DNA of 64,000 nt from Leucoraja ocellata (lineage: Eukaryota), in the NCBI GenBank assembly GCA_036785375.1, contig JAWMAR010000105.1, forward strand, positions 6,448,001-6,512,000, given 5' to 3'. Each line of letters begins with the position of its first letter. The stretch's first letter is position 1. Made by a program: the position numbers and the translations under genes. Below the pieces are notes generated by a model. It was not told the origin of the DNA and ran no database searches. It saw nothing but the letters and a program-made list of their open reading frames with translations. Shown piece by piece: positions 2,490-24,796 of the stretch.

Positions 2490-3200
2490 GCGTTTGATGC
2501 CGGTGTCCGTGCCATCACCGTCCACGTTTGATTTGTTGGGCTCTTGGCTCCATGTGTTATGACGGGCCCTGTGTGTGCTGAGCTGGGTCAGTGCGCGCAA
2601 GGGGTGCGTTTCACCGCCGCTCAGTTCTGCGTGGGACCAGAATTTAGCCCGGACTGTGCTCTCTGATCGGCCGGGATGAAAGGTGATAAACCCTGTCCTG
2701 TCGCTCCTGACCAAGAGCTCCATTCAGGGACTGTCCCGGCCCCCTGGATGGGGTTTTTAAGCTTGGAGCCAGACCAGTGGCAGGTTGGAGCCGGGGACCG
2801 AAGGGCGAGAGGCGGCGTGAGCTTGTGGAGACCGGTGGCGGCCGAGCGACTTTCAGCCGCTTTCGTTGGTGGACAGCGCCCAGGCAGATACGCCGAGCGG
2901 CTTCGGCAGCGCTCGGGCGAAGTCGGCGCCGCGGGAGGGAAGGAGAAGGCGGGGAGAAAGGCGGGGCTGAGCGGCCACGCAGCGGGCGGAGCTGCTCGAA
3001 TCCCCGCGGGTGCTCCGAGCCTGGCGTGCACTGGGTTAAAAGCCCGCAGCTCACCGTGCTGGCTCTGGGGAACGCTGTTAACAGCAGGAAGAGTGGCGAG
3101 GTGTGGTGCGGACATCAGCAGAGAGAACCATTCTTGTTTTCCTCACGACAATCCTGCCGAAATTGTCCCAATCTCCGCGCCGCCAAACAGCACAGAACAC
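2490..3200. promoter_or_regulatory. Intronic CpG island with GC boxes
   Basis: Abrupt GC- and CpG-rich, non-repetitive segment in a CpG-depleted background. GGCGGGG boxes near 2948 and 2960, GGGCGGA near 2984. Confidence 0.8.
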
Positions 3201-6200
3201 CCCGAGGCAATTAGGGAGTTGCACCTTTTCTTGTTGCCCCAGCCCTTGGCATGAGTGAGCTATGTACCACACAGGCATGAAGCATTGCCTACCAATGATA
3301 CAGTATCTTGCTGCCTACCGTTACAGAAAGGGTGCTGGATGCAAGGCTGTAACATGTTCACTTACACAGCACGCCTGTCGCTAAGACTGGTGTCACCAGT
3401 GAAATAAAACGAAGCTACTCTGCAGTTCAGAATTGAAATATATTTTACCGTGTGTGTAACCAGATCTTGCCACACGGTTGGAACCCGGCTATGCGTGTTC
3501 TGAGTTTGATATGATGTGGTCTTTGCAGTGTTTCAACCGATTTGAGGTCGAGTGTTGACTGACCCGTGGAAATTGTACAGAAGTTGAAGTCCATGCAAAT
3601 GATGCAAATACAATCACTTATCTCTCACAATAAATAATTTTCAAATATATTTACATTTTTTAAGTATTGCAGTACTGACCAATTGACACTACTGGCAATG
3701 GCACCAAACCTAATTGTTGTAGGTGGATTCTGGACCAGTTTGGTTTTAAAGGAAAGAGATGTCGAATGAAAAACATTGTCAGCATCTGAGAGTTTAATAG
3801 CTATGAAGGAAAATAACATTATTATTAATCATTTGTGAATTATGGAGAGAGATAATGAATACAAAATATTGAATTATTCACATATCTTTAGTTGGGCACG
3901 GAATGAGGGCAGGGACAAACAGTGGATACAGTCTCTTCGAAACTTTCCACTGACATACTCTGTATGATGTGAACAACAACATTTAGACATTTGAGATGCC
4001 CCTGGTGATATTATGCAAGAAACGCAAATGTTCAATGGATTTCTGAGCACGGTTGCTTATTTGCATTGTGATGTACCTAGGGACATATCGAGCTATTGGC
4101 AGATATGTGCCATAAACAATATTTGAGTCACAGCTGGTGGCAAATTGGCTTTGGACAATTAGGTAATTCATAGTACAGACCAACATCTGAACATGCAATG
4201 TCACTGGGTGGAAGTTCGTGTTTATTAAATAGTTCTGCTTGGATTGATTAAGCGAAAGATTGAGAAAGTTGTTCTAAAATTGTTCATTGCTGGAATTCAC
4301 AATTGAGCTGCACACAATTCCAAAAGCCCTTTCCATCTTGGAGAACATTCAGAAATGTTAATCGATGTATGATACTTTGGTTGAAAGCATAATCATTTTT
4401 GGATACATCACAGAAACAGTCACGTATAACGAGTGTTAGAGCACCAAGTCTTGCCACAAGATGATCTGCAATAATGTGCAGAAAACTCACATTGAATCAA
4501 ATTTATTTTGTTTTGGTTTTATTTTAGAACTCCCAATAGTACCACTGTTAGGTCCCTGATCTTTGCAATTCAAGATGATTAAATACCGTTATAATGAACT
4601 TTTTGCACCTGATCCTGTGTAATCAGTTATTGTGGAGGGTGACAAGTGGGGCGAGGGGGTCCAAAAATAGCCTCTACCCACTGCTTAAATAACTAAGTCC
4701 AAAATAAATCTTTACATTGCATGGAATGTCACAATTCTATTTGCAATTAACTGGAAGTGTATTGTTGAGTAAAATTGAACTTCTTTGGGTTCTTAGTGGG
4801 AGAGTCTTTATATACCGGCAGAAATATTTTCGCATTTCGCAGCTAACAAAATGACTGTGTCATAGAGCAGCTGCTAAAGTCCAATTGTGTTCATTTGAAA
4901 TGGCACGTAATCCATTTAATGTTTAGGTCGTAGCTCCTACAGCCCATGTACTGCTCGTGAAATGCTGTAAAGTATAACACCTTGATGGCAGGTATTTTTC
5001 ATATCATTCACTCATTACTGACATAATTACATTTTGTATCCATCATAAACAGCGATTTATGAAGTTTGTGAAGTCATTTGGTCAGCTGCTGCTGACCTCC
5101 ACTCCTCCCCGTACCTACCCACATCTTGTTTTTAAACAAAGATACAATAAAAGGAATTGGGAGCTTCCAAGTGCTTAAATGGTTTCATGTAGAATATTAA
5201 GGAATCCCAAGCCGCTCAGCTGAAACTCATTAATGGTGTAATATTTTTCAGTGCATAATTGGTGAATGCACACTAAGAAAAAGTGCGAGTTGCACAAGAG
5301 AATTGGGGTTTGGAATATTCTCTTCAAAGCTTGAAACTTTCCAACTAAATTAATTTTTCCCACCTTGAAATTTTACCAATTATTAAAACTTCTAAGAATT
5401 TCAGGAATATTTTTATTCATAGACGAAGGAGATTTAGAGATCACCGTGTTTTAACATAAAAAGTGTCAAGATTCGGAATCCTATACAGTGAAACAAAAAA
5501 AAATAACACTTTAATTTCTGGTTTTCCCAGGACTGAGTCATGTGGTTAAACGTTAAATTGTTTAGGATGAGAGCTATTTGTTTGTTGACGGGACAGAGCA
5601 TTACTAAATAAACTTACAATTCTGTACCTGGGGATGGTGTTAGATTACAGAGAAACCTAAAAGGGGATACCTGAAAAAAAGGTCTATAGATCTCTTGCAA
5701 TGTGCTTATTAGTTGGTGCAAGTTCACAACACAGATTATCCACCGTTTTTATTCATTTGTAATTGTAATAAAGGATATGGATGGCTAAGTAAAAAAACGT
5801 ACATCTCAATATTGGTGCAATGACTTTCTTTTCAAGGATGAACCTAAGGCTAATTGAAACAATAGTCAGGGAGTGATTTTCTTTAGGAGCTTAATGGGGC
5901 AATGTGGATAAAGCTTTATTTTTGTATCTTCTCACTGAGATATCCACGAGGGATTGATAAATTGGTTTCTCGGGCTGGGAAGTCTACATTTTGGGGGAAT
6001 GTTTTCACAATAAGGAGTGAGATGAGGAAGCATTTCTTTAAAATGAAGGGTTGCATATATTTGAAAATCTCTACTTCAGGGGGCCACTGATGCTTAGTCA
6101 TAGCACCATGTTTCTTTAGTGCTATTGGAGATGCTTTGTTCCAGTCAAGTAGAGAGTTTTCCGTCGCAATCCTGGTTTGTGCTGTGGAAATGGAATAATT

Positions 6201-21482: not shown

Positions 21483-21803
21483 TATTCTTTGTTTGCTTCT
21501 CCAAGTTCATCCATTTGACCAACTTTTTATGTCACCCTGTATTAAATCTCTTCCTTTCTAGCCTGGCTTCCATTTCCCTTGTGTCTCTTTATGTGTATAC
21601 AGTTTATAAAAGCAGAGTTGTGTAAGTGAGTTGTGTACACTGGGGTGACATTTACGATGAATTCAACCTTTAATGGAGTGTGAAACTGACTGAAGGGGAG
21701 TTTCAGAGTTGTATCTCTGAAATCACTGTGCGGTTTTGTATTTTGAATGAAACACAAGAGTCCCTTTCATTAAATAACCTCTACAGCAGTCAAACCTTTA
21801 TGG

Positions 21804-21925
21804 TTGTTCTTCTTCTTGCGTATGGCGTGCACAGCCTAAAGTTGTAGGACAACTTGTTCTATTTGATTGTGCACGCTGGGCTGATTGCATTCGTCGAAAC
21901 AGGGAAGGTTGCAATCTTCCACCCC
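21804..21925 (-). mobile_element. Short structured retroelement with a candidate degenerate HDV-like ribozyme head, (GAA)n tail and TSD
   Basis: TSD aac(c/a)tttatgg at 21793-21803 and 21926-21936. The minus strand begins GGGG and ends gaagaagaacaa, with three perfect internal stems. Confidence 0.7.
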
Positions 21926-21929
21926 AACA

Positions 21930-22050
21930 TTTATGGATAGAAAAGATCTTGAAGAATGTGGGCAGGTGGGACTAGTATGGATGGGGCATGTTGGTCGGTA
22001 TAGGCAAGATGGGACGAAGGACCTGTTTCCATGCTGCATGACTCTATGAC
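21930..22050 (+). mobile_element. CR1/HER1 3' tail
   Basis: ggcaggtgggactag...gggcatgttggtcgg...gaaggacctgtttccatgctgcatgactctatgac. Confidence 0.8.
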
Positions 22051-22277
22051 AGGATAGGATGCCATTATGCAGTAGCTGGTCTATTATTGTGGAGACAGAT
22101 TTTCTTACTATGAATTAGATGCAAGTCTGACCTTGGGACAAGGGCAGGGCTATTCTTACCTATGTCTGATGAGTAGGTGTGAAGTGCCTTCTGACGCATT
22201 AACCTGAGAACAAGAGCAACCTGAAATGCTTCAGTTTTATTCCATCTGTTTAGAAAGTGATGAAGGGAAAGTTGATG

Positions 22278-22474
22278 GTTACACAAAAAAGCTGGAGAAA
22301 CTCAGCGGGTGCAGCAGCATCTATGGAGCGAAGGCAATAGGCAACGTTTCGGGCCGAAACCCTTCTTCAGACGGAGTGTTTCCTTCGCTCCATAGATGCT
22401 GCTGCACCCGCTGAGTTTCTCCAGCTTTTTTGTGTAACCTTCGATTCTCCAGCATCTGCAGTTCCCTCTTAAAC
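22278..22474. mobile_element. Palindromic PLE terminal-repeat element with 15-bp TSD
   Basis: TSD aagggaaagttgatg at 22263-22277 and 22475-22489. Perfect 58-bp inverted arms at 22277-22334 and 22382-22439, with a hammerhead core in the spacer (minus strand). Confidence 0.9.
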
Positions 22475-22906: not shown

Positions 22907-23125
22907 TATAAGAAAGAACTGCGGATGCTGAAAAAATCGAAGGTAGACAACAAATGCTGGAGAAACTCAGTGGGTGAGGCAGCATCTATGGAGAGAAGGA
23001 ATTGGCGACGTTTCGGGTCGAGACCCTTCTTCAGACTGAAGAAGGATCTCGACCCGAGACGTTGCCAATTCCTTCTCTCCATAGATGCTGCCTCACTCGC
23101 TGAGTTTCTCCAGCATCGTTTGTCT
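22907..23125. mobile_element. Palindromic PLE terminal-repeat element with two back-to-back hammerhead cores
   Basis: TSD attt(g/a)ggaactggatatg at 22889-22906 and 23126-23143. Palindrome centred on 23035 (ttcttcag-a-ctgaagaa) with arms of about 90 bp. Confidence 0.9.
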
Positions 23126-24796
23126 ATTTAGGAACTGGATATGGTTTGTAAATATTATTAACACTAGTTTACAGGATTATAATCCAGCAATGTGCTCAGA
23201 ACAGGAGATTTGAGAAAGGTAATCCAGGATATGGCTTGAAACAGAACATCCATGGCATCAATTCATGAGCAGAGCAAAAGGGGGCAGTGCTAATGGTTAA
23301 CCTGATAGATACCATAAATAGCCGAGAGTTGACCAGAGCTCTGTGAGAGTGGGGACTGCAGTTGGGCTCTGCGGTTGTCAAACTATATTGTTTTATTGGA
23401 ACTTGAGGCAGGGCAATAGCTTGCAGTCCGCAGGGCAGCGTATTTTAGTGCTATCAGTTGCTGGTACATCCCGTCCACAGGCCAATGACAAGTACTCAAT
23501 GCCAGACTTCTACAAAATGACAATGAAATAAGAGCAGCTGCTGAAAAGAAATGTGATTAAATGACATTAGGCCAAGTTCCATTTATATTTAATAGCAGGA
23601 TTTGTACATCTGGACAGAGGGAAAAGCAACGTGGATTGCCGACGTGGGGATTGGCGACAGATAGAGATTACTGATTAAAAGTACCAGCCGGGATTTGCCC
23701 ATGGCTTTTTTTTGAGAAAGAAATGCAGCTGTTTGAGGATAAGTGGGTTGATTTGAGATTTGCAAAGTAAAATATGCTTCAGATCCCTCTGGTGTGTGCT
23801 TGTGCGTAGCAGATGAGTGATGGGATGTGCAGAATTGCAACAATAGCACCAGCAGACACTAAACCATTGGATGCTCTCAGTGCGAGAGAGGCTCTCTAGT
23901 TAATTGTGTTTGTGCCAAGTCTTTGCCAGAAAAATCCAAAACCAATCCCACTGCCCTCCCCTCCCTGCAGACACGTATTTCGTTGTTTCATATGTTTATT
24001 CACGTCCCTTAAAAGAAAACCTATTGATATTAGATTGGTATCAGTTTCTCCCAGAAGTAAACTATTTCATACTTTCACAAAACACCAAGATAGTTTTCAT
24101 AACCTCTCCGCTCACTCCTGAGAATTAAAAACATTTTGTCTATTCCCCATTTCCCTGTGAATTCGGCTCAAGCCTGGTTGAGAATCTTAAGAGTTCAGGG
24201 CCGAGGGAGTAGTGGCTTTTAAACAAGAGGATCCCCTTCCCTTTCCATCAGGTCATAAAATGAGCAAGGTGTCATTCATTCACTGATGAAGCCCAAGGGC
24301 ATTTTCCCCATTAAATACAATGACTACTTGCTGTTCCTGTGACAGTTTTGCCAGATAAAGATGTCTTGACCTTTTCAAGATTCTGATTTGATTAAGAAGC
24401 TTGTGTGTGGCCTTGCATTATTTCTGCTCCGTCTGTTACTTGCTCCCTAGGCAGAGTATCCTTCTATTTCTAGTGTTCTATTTCTTGATTTTTTTTTTTC
24501 CTCTCCTTATGCTAAATTTACTACTTGGGACCTGAACTCAACACTCTCCCGATCTCCCTGACGCTACCCCATTCTGGTCAATTACCTTCCACCAGAATGA
24601 TACATACAGAATAAATTGCAATACACCATTGTTAACGAGACCCCAGCCAGCTTTTCTTTTACATTGATGGTTATACACATCAATTAATGTTTGCCCATTA
24701 GTCTTTTAAATAGTTAGAAGATGAAGGGTGGTACAGCGATGGTTTCAGCAGATCAAAAAACATAGCAGTTTAGGCCCCACATTTGGGCTCAATTAA

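Follow-up and report, generated by a model that had tools for sequence, protein, structure and literature searches.

A Decayed Copy of an Abundant Short Retroelement, Probably Derived from a Vingi-Type LINE and Headed by a Predicted P4-less HDV-like Ribozyme, in the Genome of Leucoraja ocellata

Results and Discussion

The stretch of 64,000 nt analyzed here (the window) contains a 122-bp element on the minus strand at 21804-21925. This element is very probably a decayed copy of a non-autonomous retroelement of about 140 nt, composed of 80 bases from the start and 45 from the end of a Vingi-type LINE; intact heads of the family would form a complete HDV-like fold without P4, likely freeing the element from host transcripts at its first base (G1), and inactivity is predicted for the window copy, which is 11 bases short of that fold. 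In itself the copy is a dead insertion of an ordinary kind, and the interest resides in the family.

Structure of the Window Copy

The initial annotation of this DNA had read the minus strand from 21925, and its letters proved to be as stated. The 11-bp target-site duplication (TSD) that it placed directly against the first G was also recovered, with one mismatch between the two copies (21793-21803 and 21926-21936, 10/11 identical), and adjoins G1. The features are listed below in the order of the element, all on the minus strand.

21926-21936, minus strand: 5'-side copy of the TSD, abutting G1 (swapped-flank control 3/217)
21919-21925, minus strand: P1 5' strand GGGGUGG; 21925 is G1, the predicted cleavage site in intact copies
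21917-21918, minus strand: J1/2, 2 nt
21910-21916, minus strand: P2 5' strand GAUUGCA (pattern search and structural descriptor)
21905-21909, minus strand: P3 5' strand ACC plus the two leading bases of L3 (descriptor and alignment)
21904-21905, minus strand: site of the 11-nt deletion, which took the remainder of L3, the whole of P3', and the first three bases of P1'
21901-21904, minus strand: P1' remnant CCCU (alignment)
21894-21900, minus strand: G for P1.1, U, then UUCGA in the place of P4
21890-21893, minus strand: J4/2 CGAA, with the C at 21893 in the place of the catalytic cytosine by alignment
21883-21889, minus strand: P2 3' strand UGCAAUC
21866-21882, minus strand: remainder of the parent LINE 5' UTR (family nt 55 to about 80), including the site of a 10-nt deletion
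21853-21865, minus strand: 13-nt linker of the short element only, absent from both parent ends by alignment
21818-21852, minus strand: last codons of the parent LINE, stop codon (21836-21838), and 3' UTR, with the 3' arms of both body stems
21804-21817, minus strand: (GAA)n tail
21793-21803, minus strand: 3'-side copy of the TSD, 10/11 identical to 21926-21936

The P2 pattern (GATTGCA ... CGAA TGCAATC), which the initial annotation had pointed out as P2 with CGAA before P2', was matched once in the window, at 21883-21916, and in none of 100 shuffles. The two nested body stems it described are both exact and both present in the predicted fold: the 9-bp stem pairs 21868-21876 with 21825-21833, its 5' arm lying within the parent 5' UTR part at 21866-21882, and the 7-bp stem pairs 21849-21855 with 21839-21845. 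The stability of the whole-element fold was unremarkable (z = -1.31). The linker consists of a repeat of the preceding CAAATAGA and of bases complementary to the 3' part, which form the 5' arm of the 7-bp hairpin. Because it repeats the bases before it and complements those after it, the inner hairpin occurs in the short element alone, and the linker likely originated by a template switch.

Rfam gave no hits at gathering thresholds in the whole window and no ribozyme match at loose thresholds on the window copy. No tRNA was detected by ARAGORN in 21500-22300, and matches to A- and B-box patterns on an intact copy were equalled by 934 and 493 of 1000 shuffles, in agreement with the earlier statement that tRNA A/B boxes are missing. 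A tRNA-derived SINE (SINE2) was therefore rejected, there being no tRNA-like head and only chance-level A/B boxes.

Predicted Fold of the Intact Head

The intact head comprises 54 nt arranged as a double pseudoknot of the HDV/CPEB3 type in which P4 is lacking. In the intact copy L036, the structural descriptor recovered with zero mismatches P1 GGGGUGG/CCGCCCU (7/7), J1/2 AA, P2 GAUUGCA/UGCAAUC (7/7), P3 ACC/GGU (3/3), L3 UUCACGU, the P1.1 G, U, UUCGA, and CGAA. The same fold was found in the parent head L255, and in none of 200 shuffles of either sequence. Across intact members, P1 extends over 7 bp from G1 with a G1.U wobble (GGGGUGG/CCRCCCU), and J4/2 begins with C followed by N-A-A (CGAA or CUAA). 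The subfamily variants inside the head (U-A/U.G in P1, AA/GA in J1/2, and CGAA/CUAA in J4/2) preserve the fold. Between P1.1 and J4/2 there is UUCGA alone, in the family and in the parent and not just in the window copy; since P4 is absent, the head was filed as the minimal HDV-like type. The best Rfam model on L036 was HDV_ribozyme, which covered exactly the head (54-58 nt) with 21.7 bits and an E value of 0.31, below the Rfam cut-off of 50, the loss falling where the model expects P4. By analogy with HDV C75 and CPEB3 C57, the catalytic cytosines compared in PMC9901934, the first C of J4/2 may have the catalytic role, and intact heads are predicted to cleave themselves 5' of G1.

A search for the L3 and J4/2 motif of the head with another P2' returned 21 matches, all of them the short element, and no further family; a diverged loose end from one run had no matches in this genome. 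Thirteen metagenome loci showed no ribozyme pairing by eye and were treated as chance.

In the proposed mechanism, transcription of a copy would start in host DNA and read through, or would start at a promoter within the head, and the ribozyme would cleave directly 5' of G1, leaving a 5'-OH end protected by the pseudoknot. The parent protein would then recognize the common 3' end and the (GAA)n tail in trans, and insertion through target-primed reverse transcription would produce TSDs of 9-14 bp. Cleavage, transcription, and trans-mobilization are proposed here by analogy with L1Tc/NARTc and the R2 SIDEs as described in PMC4035085, PMC3414825, and PMC6765202. A different origin of the G1 end, from a promoter inside the head with the P4-less fold protecting the end or binding protein instead of cutting, is considered unlikely. 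L1Tc Pr77 acts both as an internal promoter and as a ribozyme according to PMC4035085 and PMC8256844, such a promoter would also yield 5' ends at G1, P4 is reduced to five bases, and the activity of the head is itself a prediction; however, all pairings, the P1.1 pair, and the C of J4/2 have been retained by the short element, by its parent, and by two further families, P4-less HDV-like ribozymes are reported to cleave in vitro (10.1101/2023.06.13.544163), and Pol III boxes did not rise above chance. Cleavage by the head thus remains the preferred reading of the G1 end.

Copy Number, Ends, and Subfamilies

A genome search with the element gave 1726 first-look candidates. The exact intact 35-mer occurs 3462 times in the genome (control 0), heads whose length between a pair of fixed anchors is intact 10,775 times (control 0), and a body segment 9,329 times. 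On contig C1, 50 of the 79 listed body matches have a listed head match, which gives about 17,000 copies by overlap, an estimate that takes in duplicated haplotype stretches. The locus L001 (G000:C485:90820-90941) is an identical duplicate of the window locus together with its flanks, and many other locus pairs are likewise duplicated with flanks, identical or nearly so, pointing to duplicated haplotype stretches in the assembly, by which the copy counts are inflated. In addition, copies of the element are amplified in a tandem array with a period of about 2 kb at G000:C1:19.26-19.43 Mb (L054-L060).

Most of 30 fetched loci carry 11 extra bases between ACCTT and CCCTG. The initial annotation had anticipated about 10 extra nucleotides in this place, supplying GGU (P3') and CCRCCCU (P1'), and the family carries 11, which supply both. 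It had also expected a multi-copy family with homogeneous 5' ends rather than a single-copy sequence; at least 10,775 heads of intact length were present, and the 5' ends agreed, with a G1 start in 19/21 intact-core loci and in 9/9 loci bearing the 11-nt deletion. The distinct intact-core loci starting at G1 do so with GGGG, and a TSD adjoins G1 in 16/21 (swapped-flank control 3/217; nine duplicate loci were dropped from the end analysis). TSD lengths in the family range from 9 to 14 bp.

At least two subfamilies exist, with CGAA or CUAA before P2' and with different bodies. The element is present in runs of six organisms (four rows possibly coming from the same source as this DNA). In three other organisms, contigs about 95% similar to the left flank enter the element tail by 27, 23, and 11 bases, overlaps below the 31-base standard that give a hint of an insertion older than the split from these organisms. 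No empty insertion site was found among the joints listed from four runs.

Deletions in the Window Copy

Compared with the intact copy L036, the window copy has two body substitutions and two deletions, of 11 and 10 nt. The initial annotation had recognized that P3' and part of P1' were missing, and alignment to intact copies accounts for this as the 11-nt loss, which removed the rest of L3, P3', and three bases of P1'; intact copies have CACGTGGTCCR there. Owing to a 1-nt microhomology at the junction, the break can also be placed one base further. The 10-nt deletion lies in the body between two TCAAATA repeats. The structural descriptor found no fold in the window copy, in which P3 and a full P1 are wanting. 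P3 and P1 are described as the most mutation-sensitive parts of the CPEB3 and HDV ribozymes in PMC9901934, so by analogy the ribozyme of the window copy is predicted to be inactive.

The 11-nt junction has 36 exact matches in the genome versus 3462 for the exact intact 35-mer, and each of the nine distinct loci examined among them starts at G1 and has its own TSD. These matches and ends could be taken to mean that the deleted form is a mobile subfamily that needs no working ribozyme or is cut in trans. Such a subfamily is very improbable: the ten fetched loci with the deletion fall in both the CGAA and CUAA subfamilies and have no private body changes in common, and their junction is one of many among 320 deletions of at least 2 nt in the 13-nt head segment, others being commoner among the first 100 of the 320 listed. 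Deletions in the head segment (320/11,095, 2.9%) are close in rate to those in a body segment of equal length (197/9,526, 2.1%; p 2e-4). A deletion hot spot at the pseudoknot was rejected, the excess over the body control being only 1.4-fold, so that no hot spot is needed as an explanation. Occurrence of the deletion in two subfamilies with separate TSDs argues for recurrent decay rather than a lineage. As judged from the sequences compared, the 11-nt deletion reflects ordinary decay that has struck repeatedly in copies derived from intact templates; in the window copy it would have arisen by a microhomology-type event during or after insertion from such a template and would have founded no lineage.

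The Parent LINE

The short element, about 140 nt when full, corresponds to parent nt 1 to about 80, the 13-nt linker, and the last 45 nt of the parent including the stop codon. Its nt 1-77 are 84-92% identical to parent heads. A Vingi/Ingi RT motif had 415 matches in the genome (control 0), belonging to several families with element-like 3' ends. Next to one such family, a LINE fragment was found that ends in the last 40 nt of the element and is joined to an inverted head piece. This fragment has 982 first-look candidates in the genome, and 29/30 fetched LINE 3' fragments continue into the last 40 nt of the element, several with 100% identity. The parent LINE 5' region gave 54 candidates. Head and 3' end stand in one orientation in 5/9 fetched long loci, among them L300 and its duplicate L304, where the locus from head to 3' end lies inside an 11-bp TSD. 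A LINE sharing both ends with the element, as the initial annotation had predicted, thus exists in this genome, in copies that were all seen broken.

The parent encodes an APE endonuclease (PF03372/PF14529) and an RT (PF00078) in a single ORF and is about 3 kb long. Its frames are colinear with P0001, a single-ORF protein of 1019 aa whose full-length homologues have about 1000 aa and whose identity is 35-62% to the Vingi-type loci of the genome and 24% to the Nimb-like ones. RNase H is absent: the region from the RT to the stop codon of L302/L306 is colinear with P0001, and PF00075 was found in 0/120 listed P0001 homologues (one, P0105, lists PF17917). Vingi elements are defined in PMC13708176 by one compact ORF without RNase H, and the parent appears to be of the Vingi type, an assignment made by architecture and the look of the 5' end and not by a tree with named references.

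With this parent, the family described in the initial annotation as ribozyme-headed and SINE-like retains its predicted ribozyme head, and its nature changes from a composite SINE to an internally deleted LINE derivative. The parent appears to be of the Vingi type, neither R2 nor RTE. An RTE-derived bipartite element was rejected, since 15 RTE loci from the PF20049 search have just the GAA run in common with the element, and the PF14529 matches, which are Nimb-like LINEs, likewise shared nothing beyond the GAA run. L006b was discarded as a parent, being a copy split by nested insertions. In three pattern searches for the parent, the matches were for the most part short elements with deletions, as judged in one search from 100 of its 177 rows; one row of another search (C29) is a parent 3' end.

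No intact parent reading frame was found among 45 scored candidates of a reduced search or among the nine long loci, so that trans-mobilization by the parent, as proposed, rests on shared ends and similar age. The long parent copies, all broken, are about 84-88% alike, and as an age proxy for the short element 3462/10,775 heads are exact over 17 further places; by this measure, the ages of the short element and parent seem to be of the same order. It is highly improbable that the element was moved instead by an RTE or Nimb-type LINE recognizing the (GAA)n tail. Identity to the Vingi-type parent reaches 100% over the last 40-45 nt of the element, and the divergence estimated from its heads is comparable in order to that of the parent, while RTE and Nimb LINEs resemble it in the GAA run alone; this outweighs the presence in the genome of Nimb-like LINEs whose frames are intact and of an RTE family, both with (GAA)n tails, even with no intact Vingi parent seen in the reduced search. 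The Vingi-type LINE is accordingly retained as the candidate source of the mobilizing protein.

Parent copies are often 5'-inverted. Of the 30 fetched 3' fragments, four are joined to a head in inverted orientation (L240, L255, L259, and L260), and an inverted LINE piece adjoins 15/30 head-bearing loci (L270-L299), or about 11/20 once duplicates had been paired by eye. In seven of the distinct cases, the inverted head terminates between nt 1 and 13 of the parent, in one of them exactly at G1. These arrangements look like twin priming. The outer stem of the element (21868-21876/21825-21833) joins the parent 5' UTR with the 3' UTR and measures 8 bp in the parent and 10 bp in the CGAA subfamily; part of this pairing is automatic, the core GTGCAC being palindromic. 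Such end-to-end pairing may favor internal deletion and inversion.

Nimb-like two-ORF LINEs of two families were also observed, represented by L130 (G000:C45), L131 (C303), and L132 (C2033), with open frames of 1246-1268 aa and ends consisting of a hairpin and (GAA)n. Both families are probably young.

Sister Vingi-Type Heads and the CPEB3 Ribozyme

This genome harbors no fewer than seven Vingi-type families. Some are younger, with copies 93-98% alike and (TAAA)n or (GAA)n tails (L214, L235-L237; L204, L209, L230-L234; L203). Two other heads, whose P1 and P2 differ in sequence but continue to pair, were recognized by the descriptor: L212, which has a true P4, with 0 mismatches and L206 with one (0/200 shuffles for each). 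No fold was found in 5/9 LINE heads (L305, L207, L223, L201, and L208), all single decayed copies.

A sister Vingi-type 5' end, L208:732-819 (G000:C9), scored 45.6 bits on the CPEB3 ribozyme model RF00622 (cut-off 35, E 1.6e-11); the head of the short element itself (L036) had no RF00622 match. The CPEB3 ribozyme is a single-copy intronic RNA. It agrees in L3 loop, in the single C-G P1.1, and in the CGAA J4/2 with the short-element head, which differs from it in the sequences of P1, P2, and P3 and in the lack of P4. As given in the supplement of PMC5786205, the Vingi-2_Gav 5' end shows the same L3 loop, CCCTGT after P1', and CGAA before P2', and it looks the same as the L208 5' end. In the part of PMC5786205 drawn on here, Vingi is not counted among the clades with shown ribozymes, and in the main text of PMC8233481 neither "transpos" nor "origin" occurs.

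These findings can be joined in a tentative proposal, which as a whole we hold to be slightly less probable than its failure: that the Vingi clade carries 5' HDV-like ribozymes; that one lineage has placed an active 54-nt P4-less form at about 17,000 vertebrate sites, thousands of them with an undecayed core able to cut host pre-mRNAs; and that the mammalian CPEB3 ribozyme arose by domestication of a Vingi 5' end. With a sister Vingi head above the CPEB3 cut-off, the origin of the mammalian CPEB3 ribozyme becomes testable.

Neighboring Repeats

The window is rich in other repeats. Two long inverted pairs of an abundant repeat, with arms of 72 and 91 nt, lie at 22266-22450 and 22944-23126. Their core is CUGAAGA-hairpin-GAAAC, which we take to be that of minimal Penelope-type hammerheads; Rfam gave only hairpin-type matches below the cut-off on the hammerhead-like repeats of the window. 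Apart from nearness in a repeat-rich window, no link between these repeats and the element was found. A short repeat fragment at 21961-22050, 25 bases upstream of the 5' TSD and very abundant in four runs, resembles a CR1/L2-type 3' end. The G+C-rich segment at 2600-3250 looks like a gene start, and no host gene was identified.

Significance and Comparison with Known Systems

A literature search returned no account of this short family; Repbase and Dfam, outside that search, may record the family or its Vingi link. The family appears to place a minimal P4-less HDV-like ribozyme, a type reported from phages and metagenomes, at the top of an abundant vertebrate retroelement, and it connects HDV-like ribozymes to the Vingi clade. 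Its thousands of natural variants, deletion mutants included, offer material for structure-function work. The Vingi clade is being developed for RNA-only gene insertion according to PMC13708176, and the 80 nt and 45 nt kept from the two ends provide a natural map of minimal cis-elements.

Ribozyme-headed internally deleted LINEs are already known, and the present family stands apart by its P4-less head, its Vingi parentage, and the number of its copies. The nearest counterparts are NARTc (from L1Tc), RIME (from ingi), and SIDER of trypanosomatids, described in PMC4035085 as likewise short, non-coding, two-end derivatives of Ingi-group LINEs with an HDV-like ribozyme head whose G1 is the first base of the element. 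Unlike them, the present family has an animal host, a Vingi-type parent without RNase H, a (GAA)n tail, a length of about 140 nt, and more than 10,000 copies. L1TcRz also has a P4, whereas the 54-nt head described here lacks it and its cleavage is predicted only. Internally deleted derivatives of Vingi-1_EE and bipartite non-autonomous LINEs, as presented in PMC5786205, resemble the family in having a Vingi parent of which only both ends were kept. The R2 SIDEs of Drosophila likewise combine a 5' ribozyme with the parent 3' end and are moved in trans by TPRT, but R2 inserts site-specifically in rDNA and its SIDEs are rare, as described in PMC3414825, whereas the present family is dispersed and abundant. 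The minimal HDV-like/theta ribozymes share with the intact head the absence of P4, a short J1/2, and the catalytic C as the first base of J4/2 (10.1101/2023.06.13.544163). As set out in the portion of that study used here, they occur next to tRNAs in metagenomic and gut-phage sequences, and none is reported among the genomes searched from human, mouse, and protists; in contrast to that phage and metagenome setting, the present head tops an animal retroelement.
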